A DNA stretch of 64,000 nt, taken from the NCBI GenBank assembly GCA_964016885.1, contig OZ024757.1, forward strand, positions 29,326,001 to 29,390,000. The letters run 5' to 3'. The stretch is from Eledone cirrhosa. Lineage: Eukaryota. The stretch's first letter is position 1; each line of letters starts with the position of its first letter. The notes under the pieces are model-generated. The model was not told where the DNA came from, did no database searches, and was given only the letters and a program-made list of their open reading frames with translations. Shown here one piece after another: positions 3,835-63,020 of the stretch. Position numbers and translations under genes: made by a program.

Positions 3835-4445
3835 CGTGTGAGGGTGTGTGTGTATGTATGTGTATGTAAATGTTTGAGTATGTGTGCGTGCATGAGTGTG
3901 TGTAAACGTGTGCATGTGCGTGTGTGTGTGTAAAGTATATATGAGTTATGGCGACATTGGTGCAAGCCCTATCTTCTTTTAAGTTATCCTTGGTGGAGGG
4001 AGAGAGGAAAGTGGTAAGCAGAGGTGACTGCTAGTCTTCCACACAAACCCACTGTTCAGGCTTGTGCCTCGGTAAGGAACCTTCTGGGTGCAAACCGATG
4101 ATCACTATTACTGTGATATCAATTGGGTGGACTGTAGAAATTTAGATTTGAAATATATTGATTGTAAATGCTAGGCTAACATGAGAAGATGATATAACCT
4201 TCAGACGCATGGGCTGTGAATAATAAACATATCTATTGAGCCACAATTTCACGTCTACTTAATGATCTATCTTGATCTTTAACGTCATGATAATACGAGC
4301 AGATGATTTGAATTTTTTATCCATCAGCCAGTAACCTTGCAATCCTATCTGTTAGGTTAACTTGAGAAGATGATTTGACCTCTGGGTGCCTGTGCTGTGA
4401 ACAATAAACATATCTAGTGAGCCAGAATTTCACGTCTACTTAATA

Positions 4446-4633
4446 ATTGTTTCTACTTTAGGCAAAGGCCAGCAATTACCCAGTGCATTACTGGTACTTT
4501 ATTTTATCGACCCCGTAAGGATGAAAGGCAAAGTCAACCTCGGCGGGATTTGAACTCAGATCGTAAAGGGACATAGCTATGCTGGAAAGCATGGCGTTCG
4601 ACCCTCTACCGATACTGCCAATTCACTGCCCTT
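4446..4633 (-). mobile_element. tRNA-derived SINE (Meta-domain-like), full length
   Basis: A/B boxes, central GCCTTTCATCCTTACGGGGTCGATAAAAT, and target duplication TACTTAATAAT. Confidence 0.85.
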
Positions 4634-5075
4634 ACTTAATAATCTATGTTGATCTTAAACGTCACAATAACCCAGTAATTTTATCTACCGAACCACCGTT
4701 TTAATTATAGTTATTAATTGATGTCGAATTTAAACGCTAGAATATTACAAGTAGATGTTTTGAAACCCAGCAATCTTATCTACGGAGCCACAGTTTTGAT
4801 TCTAGTTATTAATCGATGCCGATCTTAAACGTTAGAATAGCACAAGTAGATGTTTTGAAACCCAGTAGTCTTATCTAATAGCCCAGCATATTGCTTTTTA
4901 TTAATAAAGTCAGATGACATTTTGTACGTGCTTTACTTTAGGTGAAGAGAACAGATCAAAGGAGTTTCAGTGTGTAGACAGATGAGGCAAGTGTAAAACA
5001 GCAAAGAGACAGTGGGTGATAGTGGTGTAGTCAGAGCAAGGCACAGAAACAGCAAAGACTTACAACACATTTCCA

Positions 5076-7128: not shown

Positions 7129-7398
7129 TTTCTCTTTCTCTTAATTTCGAGTATATTTTTGACCGGCCACCTTCCTGGTGGCAAGGTTGTAAAAGAGAAG
7201 AAATTGTCATCCCTTGAATCGCAAGAAGGTTTTGCAAATGTTGAAGGTGCCAGCTATGTCAGCCATTTGTAGTCTATGAATTAGGGATATTTTGGTTCAA
7301 GTGCTTTGATATATAACCTGTAGCTCCAATAATGATGGAATGAAGTTGAAGGTGTATCTTGGATACTAAATCTGCAAACTCCTCATCAAAGGTCCGTG
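7129..7398 (-). mobile_element. 3' end of a second, related REL-LINE subfamily
   Basis: Frameshifted [30 protein letters not shown]...GTFNICKTFLRF; its 3' end is joined to CATACATA. Confidence 0.65.
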
Positions 7399-7445
7399 TG
7401 TATGTATGTATGTATGTATGTATGTATGTATGTATGTATGTATGT

Positions 7446-8051
7446 CAGGTCACCAGTTGGTGCTACTGGTAACATGTTTCACAGTACAACCTGACTCATG
7501 GTCGGGTCGTTGGCGACTAAACTGGCAACCCCACCAAGGTTTCTTGGTGAGGAGGGTGACTTTAGACATCCTGCAGGAATAGAAACAAAACCTGTCAAAA
7601 GGGCAAAGGAGCTCTTAAGAGTCAATGGACATCCAAAATCACCGGGAGAGATGACCCCTTAGCCTTTGTCAAGGCAGAATTATAGAAGAAGGAAAACTCT
7701 GATATAACACCTGCAACTCTGATGGTATCCAATGATGTTGACTTGTTCTTCTTTTTGGTAAATATCATCTTGGTTAAGAGAGTGGGACTGGCTTTGTGCA
7801 GTTCCTTTGCTCACTATAAAAGCTTCACGGCACAGGCATTGCTTTATATCTGGAGATCTCTCTGCACTTGTCATCACATGGTACCATGGGCCCAGCACTA
7901 TGTCTCAATAATTGTCACAAGTGTAGTGTTTGTACCAGAGTTTTCAAGTCGCTGGCTGGACTAAAAGGTCACACTCGTTCAGCGCATTGGTGGGGGTTCT
8001 CCTACATGGATATAAAGTAGTGGCCGTACTCGAAAATGAGTTGGCAGCCAC
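7446..8051 (+). mobile_element. ~605-bp non-autonomous retroposon in (TATG)n
   Basis: A near-identical copy with the same ends lies at 33179-33786 (opposite strand), and a truncated copy at 45163-45537. Contains a LINE-5'UTR-like AGAAGGAAAACTCTGA motif. No credible ORF. Confidence 0.8.
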
Positions 8052-8136
8052 TATGTATGTATGTATGTATGTATGTATGTATGTATGTATGTATGTATGT
8101 ATGTTTGTATGTATGTATGTATGTATGTATACATAC

Positions 8137-14349: not shown

Positions 14350-14517
14350 ATTTCTAGTATAGGCACAAGTCCAGTACGTTACTGATGATTTATATTATCG
14401 AACCCGTAAGGATGACAGGTAAAGTTAACCTCGGCGGGATTTGAACTCAGTCCGTAAATGGACGTAACTCTATGCTGGAAAGCATGGCGTCCGATCCTCT
14501 ACCGATACTGCCAATCC
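14350..14517 (-). mobile_element. SINE, same family
   Basis: Homologous to 4446-4633. Confidence 0.8.
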
Positions 14518-15854
14518 ATATATATATATCACGGGGTTTTGCACTTTCCATCTACGAAATTCCCCTACGCAAAGTATTGGTCAACTGCAATAGAAGACAC
14601 TTACCCAAGGTACTATGCAGCAGAATTGAAACCAAAACCCATTGATTGGCCCTGTCGACGCCTATGGTCTTTTAATTTGTTTTTAATGTGGCAAGGTGTA
14701 GTTTGATGAAGATTTGGCTGCTATGTGTAGCAGATCGGTCTAGCAGATCGAGTGATCACGTAGAGGCTTCCATTTTGGTTCAAGAAATAGACTTCTACCC
14801 CAGGTTTCGAAAATTAGTCTCATTATTCTGGTTTCTGTCATAGAAACGTTAATAGCCTGTTTCGTTGATAGCCTGTTTCGTTGTTTCTTGTTCTTTGTCT
14901 ATATCAATTCATCTCATCTCTCTCTCTCTCTCTCTCTCGCTCTGTCTGTTCGTCTGTGTCTGTCTCTCTGACTGTCTCTCTCTGTCTGTCTCTGTTTCTC
15001 TTACTCTCAACTTCTCTTTCTCACTTCACGTATCATATAAATATACATCTCTCTACTCATTATCTCTCTTGCACTTTTCCACTAAACTTATCATATCACT
15101 ATGTTATTCTCTATCTGGCTGTCTGTTCTCTCTATATAAATATTTCACTACCTCTCTTCTCTGCTTCTTTCAATATCCATATATATCTTTCCCCAATTGC
15201 TTTCAATCTCCGTCTGTGTCTATGTCAATCACCATTTCTCTTTTTCCATCTCAGTATTTTATTACACGCTCTCTCTCTCCTCTCTATCTATGTATCTATC
15301 TAGCTTTCTCTCTCTCTCTCTATCCATCTCTCTCACACACTACAACTATGTCTATGTCACTATATCTCTTTCCTTCCTTCCACATTCTCTCTCTCTCACA
15401 TGCTTTCTTCTCTTTCCATTTCCAACAATCTGTCTTTCTATCAATACCTCTCTACATCTCTCTCTCACTCTCTCTTCCTCACCTCTCTCTCTCTCTCTCT
15501 CTTACACACACATGATCCCTCTGTTTCCATTTCCAACAACCTTTTTTTCTGTCAACCCCCCCCCCTCCCTACATCTCTCCCTCCTCTCTCATACTCTTTC
15601 TGTCATTCCTTCACAAAAACTCCCCCTCGTTGACTCACTCAGTCTCAGTCTTTCTCTCTCACAGTCTCAGTCTTTATCTCTATCTCTCCTCTCTCATTCT
15701 CTCTCTTTAACCCCCCCCCCCCTCACTCTCTCTGTTGCAAGACTTCTTTTCCATCAGTCATGATTTCGTGATAATGAAACAAACCCATTCATTGACTGTC
15801 TCTGCAGTGTTCCATTGAAGTAAAAATAATTAAGCCGATTATGTACCTACGATG

Positions 15855-19270: not shown

Positions 19271-19300
<30 letters not shown>

Positions 19301-19306
<6 letters not shown>

Positions 19307-19856
19307 TAAAATAACAGATTAAATTTAAGCAAAGAATCGCTGCTTTCACCCTTAACGGGATCTTCTGAAACTAACAAAGACAACCTGTGAACAAAGAAGT
19401 GAATATTTCAAAAAACGTTGCAACCGGAGGAAGACGATACTTTGGTTCGTGGAAACTTTCCCTGGCAAAGAACGGGAAAAAACGAAGATAATACGTCATT
19501 ATTTGGAGCGGTGAAAAATAATTACACGCAAAGACAAAACTACGTTTATGGTATAAAAGAAGTCGTTTACTAATATTCTATTAGGTGGTTCATAGAGACG
19601 TTCTCTGGCAATGAACGAAAAAAAAACGAAGATAATACGGCTCTATAAGGATAAATACATATAAGATATATAAGAACCGCAGAGCAAATATTTATTAAAA
19701 TAACAGATTAAAGTTTAAGCAAAGAATCGCTGCTTTCACCCTTAACGGGATCTTCTGAAACTAAAAAAGTCAATCTGTCAGATTGACAGAAGATCCTGTT
19801 AAGGGTGAAAGCAGCGATTCTTTGCTTAAACTTTAATCTGTTATTTTAATAAATAT
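19301..19856 (-). mobile_element. Penelope-type terminal-repeat remnant in partial-tandem plus inverted arrangement, carrying a U4A hammerhead-like fold
   Basis: Direct repeats 19301-19375 and 19690-19765, and an inverted copy at 19787-19856. Homologous to 24108-24233 and 62520-63020. Confidence 0.65.
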
Positions 19857-19862
19857 ATATAT

Positions 19863-22289
19863 ATGATGGTCTTTTACCTCTTCTTCTATAACATGGATTA
19901 TTACAACATAACCAATTCAACTAAAGACATTCCTATACCTGGTAAATCTGAATTCACCAAACTTCTAATTGAAAAAACTGACTCCTTCGTAAGAAGACTT
20001 AGATGGATAGCCTATTTCTATGACCAGCGCCTAAAAGGGAACTTCTATACCAAAGAACATAACTTCCTCGATCATCTATTTAATTCTAGAAGAAATCCTC
20101 CTTCCAACAAAAATCTAGTACAATTCGAGGAAGAGTTAACTAAAATAATAAAAAATCTTAAATTCAAGAGATACCCTTACAAAGGACAAGAGCACCTTGT
20201 AAATCTCAAGAACACAATTTCTAACCTAAATTCCTCAAAAAATGTTTTAGTCCACTCTGACAAAACCAATAACTTATATGGTATTTCCAAGGATAATTAT
20301 AACAACCTTATCCTAAAGGAACTTAGGAAAAAGTATCGTAAAACCAACCATGAAAATTTAGAATACATAAACCTTGAAGCCTCTGAGATTATGTCAAAAC
20401 TTGGCATTGAAAAAAAGACAGAACCATTCCTCCCAAGAACTCCGAGGATAAATCTCAAGGATCACAAAAACAATTTTCGCACTGAACTACCTGTTAGATT
20501 AATCGCCCCCTCTAAATCTGATCTGGGGGTTGTTAGTAAAGCCATCTTGGATAGAATTATCCCACAGGTTAGTTCTAATTGCTCTTCTTTGAACCTAAAT
20601 TTATGGTTTGGTACTTCTGAAGTGATTGGCTGGTTCAACAAATTGGATAATAAAAACAAACTAAAATTTATTCAATTTGATATTGCCAGCTACTATTCCT
20701 CCATTTCGCCTTCACTTCTCAACAATGCTCTATCTTTCGCACTTAAATATTCTGACATCACCACAGATGAACTTCACATCATCCTCACCGCACGTAAAAC
20801 CATCCTAGAGTTCAACAACGAATATTGGACCAGAGCCGATACCTCTAACAACTTCGACATCACAATGGGAGCATCCGATTCATCCCAATTGACTGATTTA
20901 ATTGGTATCTTTATTTTGAACTCTTTGAGTCGGAAAATTCCTCAACTTCGCGGTGGAATTTATCGTGACGATGGACTCTTTACTATCTTAAATTGCAATA
21001 TAGTTAACCTTAATATTATTAAGAACAATATACGTAATCTCTTTAACCAACATAACCTAAAAATTGAATTTGATAACAGTATCAAACTAGCTAATTTCTT
21101 GGATGTATCTCTTAATCTTGACACTGGCCTATATTACCCTTACCATAAAAACAATGAGAACCTAAATTATGTTAACTTTAAATCTAACCATCCTACCAAT
21201 ATCAAGAATGCTATAGTTAGTAATATTGGAAAAAGAATATCTAACATATCTTCTAATAAAAACATCTTTGATGCTAACGCCAATTACTATAATAACGCAC
21301 TTTCTAAAGCCGGCTATCCTGATAAAATCAAATATAGTAAAGAAACAAATTCTAGAAAAACTTACAGTAGAATAATTAATCATGATCATTCCAATAACTT
21401 TAATAAAAGACCTAGATACAAAAACATAATCTGGTATAATGCTCCTTTCTCCATCTCTATTAATAACAATATTCCTAAATTATTCTTTAGTGCCTTAAAT
21501 AAATGCTTCCCTCCCTCACATATCTATAGTAAAATATTTAACAAACACACCATAAAATTTTCTTATTCTACATCCTCCAATATTTCCAACATTATCTCTA
21601 AACACAACAATAAAATACTAAATACTAAATTTCTTCCTTCCAACACTGAATTTCATAATAACAGTAATAGTACTCCCGACGTCATTGTAAACCCTAGGCT
21701 AATTTCTGTAAACCCAAATACAACGTCAAAAAACACAACTTCGCTAAATGTTCATAAAACAAATCTAAATCAAGAAACTATTATTCCTATCGCAAACAAC
21801 TTCTCCAATCCAATTCCTTCTATAGATAACACTAGGTCACTCATTAATAATCTCTCTAATTGCAACTGCCGCATTAAAAATAAATGTCCTCTCAACAACC
21901 ATTGTCTTGATAAAAACTTAATTTATGAATGTAAAGTTATAACTAGCACCAATTCCTTCACCTACTTTGGCTCCACTTCCACCTCTTTTAAAGCTCGTCT
22001 CTATAATCATCATTCATCTTTTAAATACAAACTTAAAAGAACCAACACGGCTCTCTCAGAACTCATATGGTCCTTGAAAGACAAAAACATTAAATATACC
22101 ATCTTTTGGAAGAAGGTTTCTTCTGCGTCTACATACTTGAACAGCTCTCTATCTAAAATCTGTAATCTCTGCCTAAATGAAAAATTTACCATTATCTCTA
22201 ATCTAGATTCTATAATAAATAGACGTACAGATTTGTTTTCTATCTGCTTGCATAAATTCCATAAGACTTTTCACAAAGTATACAGCTAA
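19863..22289 (+). CDS. Penelope-like retroelement polyprotein (reverse transcriptase + GIY-YIG endonuclease), Naiad-type; likely start ATG 19893
   Basis: Uninterrupted 808-aa ORF. N-terminal STKDIPIP and SDKT motifs. RT motifs QFDIASYYSSI, ITMGAS, YRDDG and NFLDV. Thumb region YVNFKSNHP. Cys linker CNCRIKNKCPLNNHC. Endonuclease motifs LIYECK...TYFGST...FKARLYNH and CNLCLNEK...NRR...CLH. Confidence 0.95.
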   Translation: MMVFYLFFYNMDYYNITNSTKDIPIPGKSEFTKLLIEKTDSFVRRLRWIAYFYDQRLKGNFYTKEHNFLDHLFNSRRNPPSNKNLVQFEEELTKIIKNLKFKRYPYKGQEHLVNLKNTISNLNSSKNVLVHSDKTNNLYGISKDNYNNLILKELRKKYRKTNHENLEYINLEASEIMSKLGIEKKTEPFLPRTPRINLKDHKNNFRTELPVRLIAPSKSDLGVVSKAILDRIIPQVSSNCSSLNLNLWFGTSEVIGWFNKLDNKNKLKFIQFDIASYYSSISPSLLNNALSFALKYSDITTDELHIILTARKTILEFNNEYWTRADTSNNFDITMGASDSSQLTDLIGIFILNSLSRKIPQLRGGIYRDDGLFTILNCNIVNLNIIKNNIRNLFNQHNLKIEFDNSIKLANFLDVSLNLDTGLYYPYHKNNENLNYVNFKSNHPTNIKNAIVSNIGKRISNISSNKNIFDANANYYNNALSKAGYPDKIKYSKETNSRKTYSRIINHDHSNNFNKRPRYKNIIWYNAPFSISINNNIPKLFFSALNKCFPPSHIYSKIFNKHTIKFSYSTSSNISNIISKHNNKILNTKFLPSNTEFHNNSNSTPDVIVNPRLISVNPNTTSKNTTSLNVHKTNLNQETIIPIANNFSNPIPSIDNTRSLINNLSNCNCRIKNKCPLNNHCLDKNLIYECKVITSTNSFTYFGSTSTSFKARLYNHHSSFKYKLKRTNTALSELIWSLKDKNIKYTIFWKKVSSASTYLNSSLSKICNLCLNEKFTIISNLDSIINRRTDLFSICLHKFHKTFHKVYS

Positions 22290-23183
22290 TATTCAATTCT
22301 TTATCAATTTAGAATCTTTTCTCAAAGGCACATATACATACACCTCTTTTAAAATATACCCATCTTCCTACCTTACTCTATAATACTTGTTTACTCATTA
22401 CCCTCACTCTATCTTCACCTTGTAAAATCCTTCGTAACATATACATTTGTTTTTGACGCTAGATTATTCATCCTTAATTTATTATTTTTTTCTCCCCATC
22501 ATCTAACTCATTCTTAATACATATTAACTCTTTCTTCGCACATATTATCAATTCCTTCAATATAGAAACCTTAACTTCACATTATTTTTCTCAAATCCTT
22601 CAATACACAACCATTAATAATTTTTTCTCTTCGTTAATTTTCAAATTTCCATAATACTTGTAAACATACACACAATTTTTTTTGACGTTAGAATATTCAT
22701 CCGCAATACATTATTTTTTTCTCTCTATCATCAAACTTTTTAATCTCAATACATATTAACTCCCTCTCCTTCTTCGTACATATTTCTCCCTTCGTTAATT
22801 TTCAAATTCTTTTAATTTATACATTATCTTCCAACGGTTTTCAACCTCTCTATGTAAAACAATATATCTTTTCTCAGTTATAAAAACTATCTCTTTCTCT
22901 CTATCACCCATCTCTCCCTCTCCACCTTCACTCTCATCTCCTCCCCTTTTTTTCATCCTCCCCCCCCCTCTCTAAACAAAATATTTTCCCAATATCACAC
23001 ATCAATCTAAAATTACTTTTCATATGTTGATTTAAAACTGAACTATCCACAAGTGTTTTTTAGCCTTCATATCATGTCCTCCTGTTTTATCTGATGAAAT
23101 CACAAATATTATTGCATGATGATGTTTGTTTTTGAAATGCGCATAATAAAATACATGGAACTCCTTTAACCATCTTTTGATCT
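19865..23183 (+). mobile_element. Near full-length Penelope-like element (ORF, ~0.8 kb 3' UTR, hammerhead-containing terminal region) inserted in (TA)n
   Basis: Both ends abut TA microsatellite. The sense strand is G-poor throughout. The 3' UTR has an internal duplication (~22380-22560 vs ~22650-22790) and a hammerhead at 23083-23153. Confidence 0.85.
23083..23153 (+). ncRNA. Minimal type I hammerhead ribozyme of the Penelope-like element
   Basis: Stem I TGTTTTAT/ATAAAATA; core CTGATGA (23091-97); stem II ACAAATATT/GATGTTTGT; GAAA (23134-37); palindromic stem III TGCGCA; cleavage triplet AUA. Confidence 0.85.
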
Positions 23184-23208
23184 TATATATTATATATATA
23201 TATACATA

Positions 23209-23261
<53 letters not shown>

Positions 23262-24107
23262 GTATATATATATGCGTGTGTCAGTATATGTGTGTATATA
23301 TAAATGTGAGAGTGTCAGTCATTTATGCCATCTATCTGACTGTGTGTGTATGTATGAATCCGTGTGTATATGCTTGTTTGTTAGTATATGTCTGTATGAG
23401 AGCTGATCTGTGTGTGTGTGTAAAGGTATATATAATATGAATGAGCTTGTATGTGATTGGAAATGTGTGCGCTTGTATGTATGTATAATCTGAATGTTTG
23501 TCAATGTATGTACTTATGTATGTATGTTCGAATATCTTTGCGGATGTCTATGTAAGTATGGATGTAGGTATACATAAATACATGGCTGCATTCATACATA
23601 CGCACGTACATACGTATAGGAAGAGCGAATCAGAGGCAGAAGGGAGAGAGAGAGAGAGAAAAAGAGGCAATGATAGCTGAAAGCAATATAAATATAAAAG
23701 GCTATGCACATAGACAGATATACATAACTAAACGCACATACACACATATATATATGTATATATATGTTTCATATATATATATAATATATATATATAATAT
23801 ATATAATATATATAATATATATATATAATATATATAATATATATATATATAATATATTAAATGTATCCTACTTAAATTGAATCCTAATTAGCGCAGTAAA
23901 ATAATTGCTTAATAAAACGTTTCGTAATTCATAACGTCCTATATTAAAGTAGGTCGACATTTTAATGTCTTCATATACTTATCTAAATCTAGATAACGAA
24001 GCCACTTAGAATCATATCTATACAGAGGTGTTGAATATATATATATATATATGTACATGTACATATATATATATATGAATGTATATATATATATATATAT
24101 ATATATA

Positions 24108-24233
24108 GTAATAATAATAAATTTGAAGACTAAAATCCAAAGAGGGCTCGATAAGGATAAATATATATCAAGTATATAAGAACCGTAGAGCAAATATGTA
24201 TTAAAATAACAGATTAGAGTTTAAGCAAAGAAT
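24108..24233 (-). mobile_element. 3' fragment of the same family as 19301/62520
   Basis: Matches 19645-19727 directly and 62895-63020 in reverse complement; flanked by TA repeats. Confidence 0.75.
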
Positions 24234-25018: not shown

Positions 25019-25987
25019 TATATATTATATATATATATAATATATATATATATATTATATATATCACGATAAATTAACGGAGTCATAGGCCCTCGCTATT
25101 CCTTGTAAATAATGTGCTCAAAGGAGAAGAAATCCTGAGCTCTTTAAAATACAATATGTAGAAAAGGTAACACACCAGAGAGATATATAGAGTGCGCTAT
25201 TAATAAAACGGGCAAAAGAACCCACCAGTGCATGGAATCTATAACCTATGAAAGGCAGACTATAGACACGATAACTAAAAATATAAATTAAAGCGTAAAT
25301 AAATACCTTTATAACTATTTAACACACGTACAGATCCAAAGATACCAATCCTAAGATATGTTTCACTAGTAATTTGTTGAAAGAAATGGATTAACCTCGG
25401 TTCATCAGCGTGTGTAAGGCTATACATTTCAGACAACACTATGAGAATTTCAAAAGTGACTGTCCAGCTACACGTGGGGGAGAGATGTAACGGCGTCTTT
25501 AAGGGCAGTGAACCAGTGGCCTCCGAGGGACGAACTGCTAGAAAAGGCAGCCCGAAGCCACTCAGAGAAGTGTGCTCAACAAACAGAGAGATAGGAGAGA
25601 CTGTTATAAGGAGCAACATATCACGATAAATTAACGGAGCCATAGGGCCTCGCTATTCCCTGTAAATAATGTGCTCAAAGGAGAAGAAATCCGGAGCTCT
25701 TTAAAATACAATATGTACGAACAACTTAACTGAAATATTCGCCATTTGAAGTCCTTTCCGGCTGAATTCCGTCGCATTATGTCCGAATCACCTGATCTCA
25801 GTTTTAGTTGTAGACACGCATTAAACATCCGACTACTTATAGAGATCGATAAAACAGCCAATGATCAGGCCTATATCTGAGCCTGTGCGAATCAGGATTA
25901 GAAAATATTGGGCCATAAGTTATTTGGAACAGATTTAATATGATTCTTCAACAATTCTATACGAACTTCTACACCATAATCTCTTTG

Positions 25988-29497: not shown

Positions 29498-30017
29498 ATG
29501 TGTGTGTGTGTATATATATATATATATAATTACATAATAACACATAATATAATTATTCCATTATCAAAGGTTTCAGGAAACTAGGCGTTCCTTACAGAAA
29601 CGTCCGGCTCGTTCATCCGATGAAATAGGTAACTATTTCATCGGATGATGGAGCCATTGGTAATGGAATAATTATATTGTGTTGTTTATTATGAAATTAA
29701 AAAGCTCTGTATTATACATAGAGCACTCTCCTTTCCTTTATCTTTTCTACGGAAATACTTAACACACACACATATATGTATATATTTAATTAAGAAGGGT
29801 TTTTTTTCCTATTGGGATCGAGAAGAATCCAGTTACGTTACATAATGTACTCAATACATTTGTAAAGAAGTTACATATTTATTTCTTAAGGAAATGACGC
29901 CTACATAACTAGAACTGTAAGAGATGTTAACATGAATGGACCTTTTATTTTTATCTAAAGACATTTTTTCCAATTCCACCACGCCCATCCCTTCAATCTA
30001 TTTTATTTCTGATTCTT

Positions 30018-30053
30018 TCTTCTGATGAAGGACTACCGTCCGAAACGTTAAGA
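30018..30053 (+). ncRNA. Minimal type I hammerhead ribozyme
   Basis: TCTT-CTGATGA-A-GGAC TACC GTCC-GAAA-CG-TT-AAGA; palindromic ACGT stem III; GUU site. Confidence 0.75.
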
Positions 30054-30176
30054 CACTCTTCCTGCTATATCAAGCGTCAACCTAATATATTCCTTCCATA
30101 TACAGTACCGATTGTGTTGTTATTTCTTTTTAACCTTTACATATATATATATATATATGTGTTTGTGTGTATGTAC

Positions 30177-31988: not shown

Positions 31989-32690
31989 TGAAGGCAGACT
32001 CTTTCTAAACCTGCCACGTATTGGAACTGAAAACAAACCCAAAGCACTGGTTTGTTAAGCCAACTCCATCTCAATATAGTTAAGCTATTTGATACAATGA
32101 TATATGTTTATGTACAAACGTAAGAGAGATGTAAATATATACGCTGTGTAGATTTTCTATCAGTAAGTTAACCGTTGTATTTGTTTTACATAAGACAAAT
32201 GACTGAAACCAGTAAAAGAATTGAAGAGGAAAAGAATTAAAGACTGCAAGAATAAAAGAATAAACTGTTCGTGTGAACCACACTAATGAAACAGACGTTG
32301 TGGTATTTGGAAAGTGTCATTCTGCCAATAAAAACACAAAGATGGGTTGTAGTTCAGATATTTAGTAATTCAATGAGTTGGCTATGTCATTCGTTACACG
32401 TCTGTAGTCTATTTATTGAAATTATCGTAGACCGTGTAGAGACAAACACATTCACATAGCCGAGAATTAATAGAGAAAACTAAAATACGACAATTGTTTA
32501 TCCTTTTATGGTCAAATGTCGGGCCTAATACGCTCACACACCTGCAAACACACATACGTAACGAAAGTTATCTACATATATATATATATTAGCGCGTGTA
32601 AATATATATATATATGGGATAACAAGTTATCGTTATAGGTAATCCAGTTAGAGGTTGTGAGTACTCTGATGTGTTGACTAGAGGTAAATA

Positions 32691-32875
32691 ATTGTTTCTA
32701 CTTTTTGGCACAAGGCCAGCAAATACCCAGTACATTACTGGTACTTTATTTTATCGATCCCGTAAGGATGAAAAGCAAAGTCAACCTCGGCGGGATTTGA
32801 AATCAGACCATAAAGGGCCGTAACTCTTTGCTGCAAAGCATGGCGTCCGACCCTCTACCGATACGGCCTCTCCAC
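32691..32875 (-). mobile_element. SINE, same family
   Basis: Homologous to 4446; TSD AGAGGTAAATAAT. Confidence 0.85.
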
Positions 32876-33178
32876 CATCAGAGGTAAATAATGTATTGGA
32901 GTTCGAGTGACGCGACCTCAAGCGATTAGCGAACTCTAGACTCACCTGATCAACGAAACAATTGTCAGTACTTTAAATAAAGCCCTTGTACAGCCAACCA
33001 TGTTACTCTTCATTCTTTAACTACATATATATATATATACTAAATACATACAAGTAGAGTCTTCCTTACCAAATATGGCGAATTTGTAAAGACGTTTAAA
33101 GGTGTGCGTTAAATAAATATACATTTATTTCAGTTCGTTGATGTCTACATACATACATACATACATACATACATACAT

Positions 33179-33786
33179 GGTGGCTGCCAATTCGTTTTTG
33201 AGCACGGCCACTACTTTATATCCATGTAGGAGAACCCCTACCGATGCGCTGAACGAGTGTGACTTCTCAGTCCAGCCAGCGACTTAAAAACTCTGATACA
33301 AACACTACACTTGTAAAAATTATTGACACATAGTGCTGGGCCCATGGTACCATGTGATGACAAGTGCAGAGAGATCTCCAGATATAAAGCAATGCCTGTG
33401 CCGTGAAGCTTTTATAGTGAGCAAAGGCACTGCACAAAGCCAGTCCCACTCTCTTAACCAAGATGATATTTACCAAAAAGAAGAACAAGTCAACATCATT
33501 GGATACCATCAGGGTTGCAGGTGTTATATCATAGTTTTCCTTCTCCTAGAATTCTGCATTGACAAAGGCTAAGGGGTCATCTCTCCCGGTGATTTTGGAT
33601 GGCCATTGACTCTTAAGAGCTCCTTTGCCCTTTGACAGGTTTTGTTTTTAGTCCTGCAGGATGTCCAAAGTCACTCTCCTTACCAAGAAACCTTGGTGGG
33701 GTTGCCAGTTTAGTCGCCAACGACCCGACCATGAGACAGGTTGTATTGGGATACATGTTACCAGTAACACCATGTGGTGACCCGAC
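33179..33786 (-). mobile_element. Second full copy of the 605-bp element
   Basis: Reverse complement of 7446-8051; (TACA)n on both sides. Confidence 0.85.
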
Positions 33787-33880
33787 ATACATACATACAT
33801 ACATACATACATACATACATACATACGTATATACGATTTCTCTATAAGGGTATTGCAAATAATATCTGTAGACAATGTGA

Positions 33881-35977: not shown

Positions 35978-36425
35978 AATTGTTTCTAGTTTAGGCACAA
36001 GGCCAGCAATTATAAGTGGAAGGGAAACCCGATTAAATCGACCTCAGTGCATTACTGGTATTTTATTTACCGACCCCGTAAGGATGAAAAGCAAAGCTAA
36101 CCTATAAGCCTATATGATTGTTTCTACGTTTGGCACAAGGCCAGCGATTACCCTTGCCTATTACTGGTATTTATTTTATCGAACCCGTAAGGATGAAAGG
36201 CAAAATTAACCTCGGCGGGATTTGAACTCAGACTATAAAGGGGCATAACTCTTTGCTGCAAAGCATGGCGTCCGACCCTCTACCGATACTGCAATCCACC
36301 GCCCTTATAAGCTGATGTAATTGTTTCTACTTTTGGCACAAGGCCAGCAATTACTCCAGTGTATTACTGGTACTTTATTTTATCGACCCCGTAAGGATGA
36401 AAGGCAAAGTTAACCTGGGCGGTAT
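35978..36425 (-). mobile_element. Three tandem SINE copies (two truncated, one full)
   Basis: Repeated ATTGTTTCTA..GGCACAAGGCCAGC units at ~35979, ~36117 and ~36320. Confidence 0.85.
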
Positions 36426-40019: not shown

Positions 40020-40241
40020 AACAGAAATAACACAATCGGTACAGTATAATATATATATATATATATGTTGAAAAGGTTACACACTAGAGAGAGATACAGT
40101 GCGCTATCAATAAAACACTGCATCTCTCTCTAGTGTGTTACCTTTTCAACATATTGTATTTTAAAGAGAACTCAGGATTTCCTCTCCTTTGGGCACATTA
40201 TTTACAGGGAACGGCGAGAGTCTATGGCTCCGTTAATGTAT

Positions 40242-40357
<116 letters not shown>

Positions 40358-49654: not shown

Positions 49655-49751
49655 GAGCGAGAGAGCGAGAGAGAGAGAGAGCGAGAGAGAGAGAAGATGC
49701 ATTGTATGTAGATAAGTATGAATGTATTAATGATATATATATATATAAAAT

Positions 49752-49830
49752 AATTGTTTCTACTTTAGGCACAAGGCCAGCAAATAACCCAGTGCATTAC
49801 TAGTACTTTATTTTATCGACCCCGTAAGGA
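49752..49830 (-). mobile_element. SINE 3' fragment
   Basis: Homologous to 4446-4520. Confidence 0.8.
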
Positions 49831-51072
49831 TCGGTATATATAAAATAATATATGTATATAAATATATATAAAATAATATGTGTATATATATATAAAATAA
49901 TATATGTATATATATATAAAATAATATATGTATATATATATATTATATAATATATATATTTATTTATGGAAATAATATATATATATATATATATACAAAA
50001 TAATATATATATTTATATATATATATACAAAATAATATATATATTTATATATATATATACAAAATAATATATATATTTATATATATATATATATACAAAA
50101 TAATATATATATATTTATAAAAATAATATATATATATATAATATATATAGATATTACTTATATTATATATATGATATATATAATATATATGCGTCACGAC
50201 TCAATAAACGTAATGAAGGCATAACAAATCGTCCTTATTATATATATATATACATACATACATATATATATACACATACATGTATATATATGTATGTATA
50301 ATATATATATATAAGCTTGTATATATTGTTAAACTTAAAGAAATATAGGAAGAATGAGAAAGAGTTAAGAGGAAATAAATAGGGGTGGATTTAATAGTAA
50401 TATACCCAGTGAATGAGAAACAGAGCGAAAATCGGAATGTTTAGTCTCTTCAACGCAAACGCACACGTCATTCAGATGAGATTGAATAGCAGAGGGAAGT
50501 AAACGAACGGTAAATCGATTTGACAAGGGACATTAAATAACAACAATCAAAAAAAGTTCACGAGACACTACTCGACAATGACAAATACACTAATAACAAA
50601 AACAAGAAACAACACCAAGAGCAAGACTAATAAGAGAAGTAGTAATAAAAACAAACAGAATAAACATAAAAATAGAAATAGAAAATAAACTGTTTACAAC
50701 AGATGTAAGAGTTCAACGAATAATATTATTCCTTCGAAGAAACCTACAAAGCAAATAGCAAACCGCTAGAGAGGGAAAAATACTAAACAAGACGAAATAA
50801 CAACAGTGACTTACGAAAGAATGAAATAATAAAAAATAAGTGAAATGTGCAAGACCATAAAATTCGACACGGCCATTGGAAAGTTGCAATTCCCAAGTGA
50901 ATACGTCAAAATAGCCATTGTTTAACGAAATACCCAGATTCAGTAAACGCAAAGCGTGACAGCTAGAGTCGGCCCTCCCTCTCTAATGTGAGATATTTTG
51001 CTATAATCCACTCCTATTTACTCGCTTTAAAGTTATAGTCTACAATTGTTTTATCAACCGTAATATGTTTGT

Positions 51073-53981: not shown

Positions 53982-54174
53982 AAGGGCGGTGGATTGGCAG
54001 TATCGGTAGAGGGTCGGACACCATGCTTTGACGCATAGAGTTACTGTCCTTGCTATTCTGAGTTTAAATCCCGCCGAGGTTAACTTTGCCTTTCATCCTT
54101 ACGGGGTCGATAAAATAAAGTACCAGTAATGCACTGGGTAATTGCTGGCCTTGTGCCATAAGTAGAAACAATTA
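53982..54174 (+). mobile_element. tRNA-derived SINE, full length
   Basis: A box TGGCAGTATCGG, B box GAGTTTAAATCC, central domain, 3' end GTAGAAACAATT. Confidence 0.9.
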
Positions 54175-54510
54175 TTTTATATATTTTATATACACAATAA
54201 AACTCCTTTTTTAAAAAAAAAGTGTTCCTCTCATGTTTTCAATAATGTTACTTTAACGGATCCCTATAACCTCTGTTTTGTATAAAACCTTGTTCCCTTT
54301 ACAAATATATATATTTATATACTCAGTATGTGCGAAGAAGACGGTATGATCGAACCCATATATTATGTCTGATAGTATACAGTTCTGTAACTGCTATAGA
54401 CCAGTCAATATATAGATGTGAACAACCCTCGGAAACGATCGTAAAACGATGAATAAGATATGTAAAATAACTTTCCTTTGTTATCATTGTTAAAAAAAAA
54501 CTAATATGTA

Positions 54511-54551
<41 letters not shown>

Positions 54552-54559
54552 ATAATAAT

Positions 54560-55025
54560 AATGATTTCTACTATAGGCACAAAGCCAGAAATTCTTTTTT
54601 GGGGGAAATCAATTAAATCGACCGTAAGGATGGAAGGCAAAGCTAACCTCTAATAATAATTGTTTCTACGTTTGGAACAAGACCAGCAATTATCACAGTG
54701 TATTACTGGTACTTTATTTTGTCGACACCGCAAGGATGAAAGGCAAAGCAAACCTCGGCGGGATATGAACTCACAAGTTAAAGGGCTATGCCGCGAAGTT
54801 AAACTATGCTGCGAAGCATGTCGATAATATTCGATTCGTTTGCAAGTAAACAAAGAGAGAAAGCGAGTGAAGAGAGAAAACTGATCCCGGTACTAGAGTT
54901 ATACTTTATTTGGCGGCACCGAAAGGATGAACAGCAAAGTTGAGCACGGTGGACTCCGATCTCAGAAAACGCAAGGACGGAATGAATATCACTGCTCTAT
55001 CCGATCTTCTAACGATACGGCCATT
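54560..55025 (-). mobile_element. Cluster of three SINE pieces
   Basis: Repeated AAGGATG(A/G)AAGGCAAAG-type motifs at ~54627, ~54732 and ~54923. Confidence 0.7.
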
Positions 55026-57154: not shown

Positions 57155-57450
57155 GTTGGCTTTGTGCCTAAACCAGAAACAATTATTATTAGAGGTTAGC
57201 TTTGCATTTCATCCATACTGGGTCGATGAAATAAAATACCAATAATGCACTGGGGGTCGATTTAATCGACATTCTCTTCCCCCTAAAAGTGTTGGCCTTG
57301 TGCTTGAAGTAGAAACAATTATTATTAAAGGTTAACTATGCCTTCGATCATTACGGGGTTGATACAATAAAGTACCAGTAATGTACTGTTGTCGATTTGA
57401 TCGACTTTCCTCTCCCCTTGACATTGTTGGCCTTGTGCCTAAAGTAGATA
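57155..57450 (+). mobile_element. Tandem SINE 3' portions
   Basis: Three TTGTGC...AGAAACAATT-type ends. Confidence 0.75.
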
Positions 57451-57735
57451 TAATTAATATTATCATCAATTAGAGGTTCCTGGGTTTTCAAATCCAACTT
57501 GTTCTCAATCACCTGCTTCCTCACAACGGATAATTCTCTTAAAGCTTTCATTAATATATGCATACATTATGCCAGCCAGGTTGACTATCTCACACTTACG
57601 GGGACACATTTATATTCATACACTATATATATGTGTGTGTATATATATTTATATATATACAAAATGTATATATATATACAAAATGGCGTAGGACAGAACA
57701 AAGGAGAGGCACAAAAACAAAGAAAAGAATCCCCA

Positions 57736-57778
57736 GTCACTGAAGAGGTCACAGAATGTGTGACGAAAGAACTTTGAC
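57736..57778 (+). ncRNA. Minimal type I hammerhead ribozyme
   Basis: GTCA-CTGAAGA-G-GTCAC AGAATGT GTGAC-GAAA-GAAC-TT-TGAC. Confidence 0.75.
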
Positions 57779-57998
57779 AATATATAAACAACTATCTGGT
57801 TGTGGAACCAACCAACCAACCAACCAGAAATTTATAAATTTATAAATTCCTAAATTTATAAATTTATTATAATAAATTGAAGTGAAACAACTGGTGCGTG
57901 TGTTTCTTATTGGCAACATGACCCTCCCAAAGTATAACAATATCGGTTTCAACACACGATTTCAGATAAAGCATCTTGCTAAACAAATTCAGAAACGA

Positions 57999-58285: not shown

Positions 58286-58703
58286 CATATACACGTATCT
58301 ACGTTTCTGTCAGTAATATGTAGATAACTTATACAAATACATGGCGCTGTCATCAGCAGCTACAGAGAAAACAATCTATCAAAACCAGGTGAAATATACA
58401 ATATTTTAGAAGCAAAGTATACACACACACATATATACATATATATATATACATATTGAGCAATAAACCAAAAACTGCTAACTATATTGTACATAAGAAG
58501 TCTCGTACTTTTGAGCTGTATAGCTTCACGTATAATTGTTTCGTATTCGAAATCATATCATTTTTATACTATATATATATAATAGTTTACATATATATAT
58601 ACATACACATACATATACGTGTTTTGCAACTGGATATATATATATATATATACGTAGGTCCCGGGTTAAGTCGGGGATAACCGCAGTAAGTAAGGTACTC
58701 AAT

Positions 58704-58754
58704 GGCTTCCTGAAGATTTCATCTGAATGAAACAGTACTAGTCCTGTAGAAGCT
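58704..58754 (+). ncRNA. Type I hammerhead ribozyme
   Basis: GGCTTC-CTGAAGA-T(TTC ATCT GAA)T-GAAA-CAG TACTAGTC CTG-TA-GAAGCT; 6-bp stem I; GUA site. Confidence 0.75.
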
Positions 58755-58764
58755 CCTTCTATAA

Positions 58765-62519: not shown

Positions 62520-63020
62520 GGGAATCATTCGGTTTCCTAATAGAATTTTAGTCTACGACTTCATTTATACCATGAACGTGGTTTTGTCTTTGCGTGTAAT
62601 TGTTTTCAACGCTCCATATTATGACGTATTATCTTTGTCTTTATCGGGGTCGATAAAATACGGGGTCGATAAAATAAAGTACCAGTAATGCACTGGGTAA
62701 TTGCTGGCCTTGTGCCTAAAGTAGAAACAATTATCTTTGTCTTTATCCGTTCTTTGCCAGGGAACGTTTCCACGAACCAAAGTATCGTCTTCCTGTCTTC
62801 CTTCGGCTGCAACGTTTTTTGAAATATTTACTTCTGAGTTCACAGATTGATTTTTTTAGTTTCAGGAGATCCCGTTAAGGGTGAAAGCAGCGATTCTTTG
62901 CTTAAACTTTAATCTGTTATTTTAATAAATATTTGCTCTACGGTTCTTATATATTTGATATATATTTATCCTTATCGAGCCATCTTTGGATTTTAGTCTT
63001 CAAATTTATTATTATTATTA
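62520..63020 (+). mobile_element. Longer copy of the 19301 family, interrupted by a SINE
   Basis: Reverse complement of 19301-19585 plus the 3' tail. Hammerhead-like fold at 62858-62908. Confidence 0.75.
62646..62729 (+). mobile_element. 5'-truncated SINE with 18-bp TSD
   Basis: TSD ATTATCTTTGTCTTTATC at 62628-62645 and 62730-62747. Confidence 0.85.

Follow-up and report, generated by a model that had tools for sequence, protein, structure and literature searches.

The 64,000-nucleotide window analysed here is a stretch of Eledone cirrhosa DNA (assembly GCA_964016885.1, contig OZ024757.1, positions 29,326,001 to 29,390,000 of the forward strand), and all coordinates below count from its first letter. 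At 19865-23183, on the forward strand, lies a Penelope-like element (PLE) of 3,319 nucleotides inserted in a (TA)n repeat, whose single open reading frame (ORF) joins a reverse transcriptase (RT) to a C-terminal GIY-YIG endonuclease (EN). We put at about three in four the probability that it belongs to a new, multi-copy family of the Hydra clade and that this copy, its ORF intact, is likely clipped at its 5' end and likely unable to transpose alone. An initial annotation had described it as an intact, young and possibly active Naiad element. The features of the locus are the following:

19787..19856, forward strand: 3'-end fragment of a short repeat, family B, unrelated to the element and lying outside it; its TA end forms the left flank (70-nucleotide, 99% inverted repeat with 19688-19757)
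19854..19863, no strand: (TA)5 at the 5' junction (sequence reading)
19863..22289, forward strand: single ORF with N-terminal region, RT, thumb, insert, linker and GIY-YIG domain (ORF list, alignment, predicted structure)
19865..19892, forward strand: leader of 28 nucleotides, with neither a pseudo-long terminal repeat (pseudo-LTR) nor the motif GCTC-N-GAGCNCT, likely 5'-clipped (comparison with relatives)
19992..20009, forward strand: RRLRWI, at the site of the Hydra RWK motif, K being replaced by I (alignment with relatives)
20259..20267, forward strand: DKT motif of Hydra type (motif reading)
20673..21104, forward strand: RT core with QFD (D273), DITMG, YRDD and FLD (motif reading)
21627..21857, forward strand: Asn/Ser/Thr-rich stretch, residues 589-665, predicted disordered (composition, predicted structure, other copies)
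21861..21905, forward strand: CxCX5CP-x4-C linker (motif reading)
21918..22253, forward strand: GIY-YIG nuclease, LIY...YFG, with CxxC at residues 767-770 and CxH at 795-797 (motifs, alignment, fold)
22290..23183, forward strand: 3' region of 894 nucleotides with internal duplications (self-comparison)
23083..23153, forward strand: type I hammerhead motif, cleavage predicted only (pattern score against shuffles; weak by covariance model)
23184..23273, no strand: (TA)n at the 3' junction (repeat listing)

The element and its protein

The stop-free ORF of 808 residues is the sole long non-repetitive ORF of the window. Its first two ATG codons lie at the TA junction and the alignment of relatives begins at Met11 (19893); the protein is therefore likely to have 798 residues, starting at Met11. 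Reading of the ORF bore out the RT motifs given in the initial annotation, including the catalytic D and YRDD (DKT at residue 133, QFD at 271-273, DITMG at 332, YRDD at 367 and FLD at 412). It likewise confirmed the cysteine linker, CNCRIKNKCP-x4-C, which starts at residue 667, and, together with alignment and fold matches, the GIY-YIG variant, with LIY at 686, YFG at 701 and R712, H716, E773 and N786 kept in the alignment with relatives. A motif check of the protein revealed no CCHH around the nuclease.

Pfam matched neither RT nor GIY-YIG, whether in the element protein or in those of 12 relatives. Searching with a nuclease profile retrieved no sequence of solved structure, and the 808-residue protein has no entry in the protein cluster collection searched. 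With the whole-protein model, Foldseek placed telomerase RTs in the first two positions and in six of the first seven (best E-value 6e-8). The nuclease model (predicted local distance difference test score 86.9) aligns with I-TevI over 89 residues (Z 8.8, root-mean-square deviation 2.3) and also matches T4 EndoII (Z 7.5) and UvrC (Z 5.8); Foldseek on this model alone returned nothing at E<=0.001. These searches support the predicted assignment of both domains. A telomerase-related RT with intact catalytic motifs thus shares one ORF with a GIY-YIG domain between TA flanks, as expected of the PLE in (TA)n that had been proposed.

The segment between thumb and linker measures 102 residues, versus 30-42 in most relatives. 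It holds the Asn-rich stretch (17 Asn in 77 residues), about 65 residues longer than in most relatives, in which other copies of the element vary by in-frame insertions and deletions of 3 and 9 nucleotides. Penelope elements of Adineta vaga, as described in PMC3846280, also carry an in-frame Asn-rich stretch between RT and EN, but their inserts are much longer (about 460-550 residues, 25-30% Asn).

Two parts of the 3' region, 22443-22546 and 22672-22784, are 78% alike. The terminal hammerhead claimed earlier is a real motif: its pattern score was reached by none of 2000 shuffles of the 3' region. It comprises the core CTGATGA (23091-23097), GAAA (23134-23137), a palindromic stem III (23137-23144) and an 8-bp stem I, and the predicted cut, after 23145, falls 38 nucleotides before the end of the element. 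Exact scans of genome and viral contig collections for this 3' end yielded 0 stretches. The first six bases of the leader (19865-19870) are complementary to 23169-23174, likely by chance.

Both TA junctions are sharp. The claim of TA repeats on both sides stands in full for the long run at the 3' junction, whereas the 5' junction has only (TA)5, which is the end of an unrelated repeat. The 70-nucleotide inverted repeat at 19688-19856, considered as an inverted pseudo-LTR of the element itself, belongs to another family, B, whose further copies (19299-19492, 24145-24233, 62536-62981) show no similarity to the element. A match of 14 of 16 positions between the element's 3' end and one family B tail (13 of 16 in the other copy) was rejected as likely chance. 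A search of the window, which is rich in microsatellites and in this resembles octopus DNA, found many dispersed repeat fragments but neither a further copy of the element nor remains of its protein. The statement that this is the only uncorrupted element among dozens of decayed ones is thus loosely true: the repeat fragments are there, and none of them is a remnant of a related protein.

Placement, completeness and age

According to Craig et al. (2021; PMC8557442), Hydra elements, the most divergent PLE cluster of that study, have a C-terminal GIY-YIG domain lacking CCHH, the motifs DKT, RWK, CxCX5C and CxxC plus CxH, a canonical hammerhead and (TA)n targets, and are generally shorter than 3 kb. 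One of them, Hydra-1_Obim from Octopus bimaculoides, is already listed there as complete, without a pseudo-LTR. In the element, the EN is C-terminal, the sole CxC stands at residue 667 in a CxCX5C linker, CxxC and CxH lie on either side of E and N, and a hammerhead motif with the canonical core sits near the 3' end; there is no insertion in the fingers domain (IFD), RT motifs A and B being 59 residues apart, which is also the median in relatives (57-62). The same organization, with RT then GIY-YIG in a single ORF, DKT, CxCX5C, no CCHH, CxxC and CxH around E and N, a 3' hammerhead of canonical core and a (TA)n target, is found in Hydra-1_Obim, Hydra-1_Ajap and Penelope-17_HM. Since the element lacks the Naiad characters and carries those of Hydra, apart from RWI and a length of 3.3 kb, we regard its place in the Hydra clade as nearly certain.

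Among 59 relatives of at least 650 residues, DK[TS] is present in 56, CxCX5C in 49, CxxC..E in 57 and DKG in none. Database relatives number 425 representatives at E<=1e-30, and the best of them share about 40-43% identity with the element along long alignments. In a FastTree phylogeny of 65 proteins (the element's own relatives, without labelled outgroups, three locus ORFs that were unrelated or partial having been left out), the element groups with P0018 and P0024 with a support of 0.97; this unnamed subclade nevertheless consists of distant families, P0024 being 37% identical to the element over 616 residues. P0024 (GAB1599935.1, from Argonauta hians), called 'GATA zinc finger domain-containing protein 14-like' in its source, is a Hydra-type PLE RT. 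Hydra-1_Obim also lacks a pseudo-LTR, but it represents a separate family, since its N-terminus, aligned from Met11 and compared by eye, agrees at only 19 of 45 residues (about 40%) and its hammerhead and leader are different. The element further departs from known Hydra elements by its longer Asn-rich stretch, its long 3' region, in which the hammerhead comes 802 nucleotides past the stop codon (45-516 in those relatives that have the nuclease at the end of the ORF), a long stem II and the shortness of its leader.

In order to judge the completeness of this copy, we turned to 79 related loci (L001-L079), 24 of which have both ORF ends and enough flank. The 3' end is repeated upstream in 20 of these 24, a hammerhead core lies upstream in 16, and GAGCNCT occurs within 75 nucleotides before the start codon in 21 (background 0.04). 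In the window copy, none of the three is found: its 3' end is not repeated upstream, no hammerhead core lies there and the leader is devoid of GAGCNCT. The pseudo-LTR or partial tandem of PLEs is typical of competent copies and is not required of every insertion; according to PMC4209133, further transposition needs more-than-unit copies. The leader of the window copy is 28-30 nucleotides long, and the element begins about where the 3' arm of the motif lies in the relatives. Because the pseudo-LTR and the leader motif are both missing and the leader is so short, this copy is probably cis-defective, that is, 5'-clipped with its ORF intact. Of the earlier view that the element is young, intact and possibly active, the youth of the lineage and the integrity of the ORF hold good, while the activity of this copy is doubtful.

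A number of observations weigh against the reading proposed here. Rfam, at gathering or E-value thresholds, found no hammerhead in the element; a covariance model built from the hammerheads of 28 relatives gives it 11.3 bits (E 1.9), below several other sites of the window, and the base of stem II is imperfect. RWK, found in 38 of the 59 relatives, reads RWI (RW kept), and the length of 3,319 nucleotides exceeds both the general limit of 3 kb and the published consensi (1.1-3.0 kb), an excess due to the Asn-rich insert and the 3' duplications. The 65-protein tree holds the element's own relatives and no curated PLE clades. As to completeness, none of the 79 loci belongs to the element's own subclade (P0018, P0024), so that a short leader or a different motif may be natural to its family, the strict leader motif is missing in 3 of the 24 relatives, Hydra-1_Obim is listed as complete without a pseudo-LTR, and in one contig of sequencing run X4 the match begins at 19864, behind 77 letters of other sequence, which fits a natural end as well as a clip. 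As to age, the variants of other copies were evaluated at 40 of 577 sites and 12 of 52 insertions or deletions, and the window copy disagrees with nearly all others at several sites; it therefore does not match the dominant sequences of the runs exactly and may stem from another subfamily or species than theirs.

The strongest alternative takes the element as a complete and competent copy of the same Hydra family, in a subclade whose leader naturally measures 28 nucleotides and which has no pseudo-LTR; read-through, perhaps out of the family B repeat next to it, would account for its transcription. The intact ORF and the full set of catalytic residues speak for it, as do the X4 contig starting at the same base, the listing of Hydra-1_Obim and the absence of the element's subclade from the leader comparison. 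We nevertheless find it unlikely: a pseudo-LTR is present in 20 and the leader motif in 21 of the 24 relatives, and even Hydra-1_Obim keeps a published leader of about 170 nucleotides. Moreover, nothing of the element lies beyond its 3' end, which would leave an internal start of reverse transcription, of the kind known for the Poseidon element PAc (see below), without downstream RNA.

Parts of the element are present in 14 sequencing runs from 10 studies. None of them is an RNA run, which says nothing on expression. Four of the runs were used for the analysis of copies, by aligning their contigs on the element; the summed contig depth is not a copy number. From the start to the end of the ORF the depth rises 24-, 9-, 2.6- and 4-fold in the four runs, and in the last 109 nucleotides it rises a further 19-, 8-, 17- and 3.6-fold. 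This is the shape of a family with many 5'-truncated copies, in which hammerhead-bearing 3' ends dominate. In all four runs the last 110-370 nucleotides (window 22817-23185) are several-fold commoner than the ORF end, as very short truncations or a derived short family.

The longest pieces of the ORF region are 98.2% (X4; 1,622 nucleotides) and 95.1% (X7; 1,381 nucleotides) identical to the window. Among the 40 variant sites displayed, 24 are ORF variants and 15 of these are synonymous, whereas 6.1 were expected (p 1.5e-4, sites being treated singly). Two of the 12 insertions or deletions displayed fall in the ORF; they measure 3 and 9 nucleotides and both lie in the Asn-rich insert. Because ORF pieces are 95-98% identical and synonymous variants are in excess, the lineage is very probably young and has diversified with selection maintaining the function of its protein. 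Runs X1, X4 and X7, which bear three different organism labels, contain pieces that are 95-99% identical to the element, which close kinship or recent transfer would both fit.

Instead of a recent insertion, the open frame could be that of a single copy, old or domesticated by the host, or a consensus produced in assembly from collapsed repeats. The sites at which nearly all other copies disagree with the window copy favour such a view, but the copy-specific letters of the latter argue against a majority consensus. Together with the abundance of the family, the gradient of 5' truncation, pieces up to 99% alike and two sharp TA junctions, this makes the explanation quite improbable. Finally, next to no probability attaches to a Naiad, the initial label, given that DKT, CxCX5C, the C-terminal GIY-YIG and the hammerhead are Hydra features in PMC8557442 and that Naiads, which share the PLE RT, favour (TA)n too and occur in cephalopods, are described there with an N-terminal GIY-YIG EN, DKA, CxC before the RT, CCHH, usually an IFD and a hammerhead that is non-canonical or lacking, whereas the element has a C-terminal nuclease with its only GIY-YIG-like and CxC motifs after residue 660, no frame open for more than 56 codons in the 560 nucleotides upstream (+ strand), DKT instead of DKA, no IFD-sized gain in RT spacing over Hydra-type relatives, and a hammerhead motif.

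The doubled motif of the relatives and the short families

The motif missing from the leader of the window copy, GCTC[CT]-N-GAGCNCT, has 84 matches on the ORF strand of the relatives and 5 on the other strand, in 44 of the 79 loci. It starts 31-62 nucleotides past the hammerhead cut and again at 103-119 nucleotides, and the doubled motif lies between hammerhead and start codon (for example at L015:199-307, L047:103-214 and L079:380-510). With N of 7-19 nucleotides, it is kept across Hydra-type families whose proteins are about 35% identical. The rows of the motif alignment were chosen by exact pattern, so that their pairing is 100% by construction and shows no covariation. Among 57 hammerhead-like matches with 90 nucleotides downstream, 36 have the motif in the first position, and many of the others reach TA first. 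A TA run occurs within 130 nucleotides of 14 of 71 hammerhead-like matches, 8 times at +32 to +49, 4 times at +103 to +112 and twice elsewhere, these cut sites being placed by pattern and possibly off by several bases. The insertion ends of the relatives thus fall shortly before one or the other copy of the motif, and in the window element the end lies at +38 from the predicted cut.

Published Hydra consensi contain the motif too, twice in the leader of Hydra-1_Ajap and once in the tails of Hydra-2_Ajap and Hydra-2_Amil, and variants of it are found in Hydra-1_Crog and Hydra-1_Obim. No description of it was found in the literature searched, to which subscription papers and most supplementary text did not belong; the main text of PMC8557442 contains none of the terms 'hairpin', 'stem-loop' and 'palindrom'. 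Elsewhere in the window, near a TA/GT run, one GCTC...GAGCACT match (29704-29727) is preceded by a long hairpin (29607-29654).

The initial annotation suggested that the element could mobilise short hammerhead-bearing families in trans. Two short families of the window have ends of Hydra type but, as judged by comparison within the window, share no sequence with the element, so that their mobilisation by it would be no more than a possibility. Family B (19299-19856, 24100-24233, 62536-63020) is an ORF-less, high-depth repeat with a tandem period of about 390 nucleotides and an inverted 70-nucleotide partner. It carries a hammerhead-like motif of core CAGAAGA or CAGGAGA, and its copies have either a short end, about 3-5 nucleotides before a long-loop version of the doubled motif, or a long one, about 38 nucleotides past it. 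Family C (25061-25697, reverse strand; 40122-40247, forward strand) is an ORF-less unit of about 560 nucleotides with a repeated end, a weak hammerhead-like core near 25407 and two motif-like copies ending in GAGCACA, both of its TA junctions lying about 6 nucleotides before the second.

Families B and C may depend on some Hydra protein as non-autonomous passengers, unless they are truncated copies of other families. Animal retrozymes have been argued to derive from PLEs (preprint 10.64898/2026.07.22.740005), and PMC3846280 reports action in trans through a family's own pseudo-LTRs, but no cross-mobilisation between PLE types. We tentatively suggest, as a possibility somewhat short of even odds, that each copy of the doubled motif is a binding site of the RT-EN protein that sets the start of reverse transcription a few bases upstream, and that families B and C, which carry the motif with the same geometry of ends, are passengers of Hydra proteins such as the one encoded here. 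If this were true, the motif would explain why 3' ends occur both with and without a tail, and also how the window copy came to be clipped at its 5' end.

Other repeats of the window include hammerhead-like motifs on the forward strand at 58701-58757, 30013-30058 and 57731-57783, the first of which obtains the highest score under the relatives' model (21.8 bits), with (TA)n close behind. A family of about 190 nucleotides resembling a short interspersed element has more than 10 copies in the window, one of them inside family B, and a pair of 691 nucleotides, 7395-8085 and 33146-33835, is 94% identical. The copies of the former are at:

4441-4634, 14370-14518, 32685-32876, 36045-36425, 49734-49831, 53982-54786, 57155-57462, 62659-62737

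A possible mode of mobilisation and its significance

Poseidon PAc, from Anolis carolinensis, has been reconstituted in vitro (PMC11167929). Like the element, it combines RT with a C-terminal GIY-YIG domain, a hammerhead and an AT-rich target: its nuclease cuts AT-rich DNA, reverse transcription starts at two internal RNA sites bounding an optional tail, and hammerhead cleavage was reported to be dispensable in vitro. It differs in that it belongs to another clade and has its start sites in an AC-rich stem-loop inside the ORF, while the two ends of Hydra-type relatives lie in the non-coding leader, each before one copy of the conserved motif. By this analogy, the element likely works in the same way as PAc. 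The scheme below draws on PAc and on the proposal of circular RNA made in PMC4209133.

A tandem, longer-than-unit or circularised Hydra RNA would be bound by the RT-EN protein, whose GIY-YIG domain would nick (TA)n, and the nick would prime copying. Reverse transcription would start inside the RNA, about 38 nucleotides past the hammerhead cut, a position that in relatives is just upstream of the first motif. From upstream of motif 1 or 2 it would proceed through the hammerhead, the 3' region and the ORF. Continued copying would generate the pseudo-LTR, but most events would stop early and leave many short 3' ends. In the case of the window copy, the enzyme likely stopped 28-30 nucleotides before the start codon, at the 3' arm of the relatives' second motif, so that the leader motifs and the pseudo-LTR were lost.

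As an element it is ordinary, adding a family to a clade that has been described before and in which an octopus member was known. No biochemical study of the Hydra clade was found in the literature searched, and an uninterrupted ORF from a young lineage could be taken directly into the in vitro assay described in PMC11167929. Through the doubled motif of the relatives it also becomes testable which RNA or DNA signal fixes the start of reverse transcription in PLEs, thereby creating the optional tail, and whether that signal suffices for mobilisation in trans.

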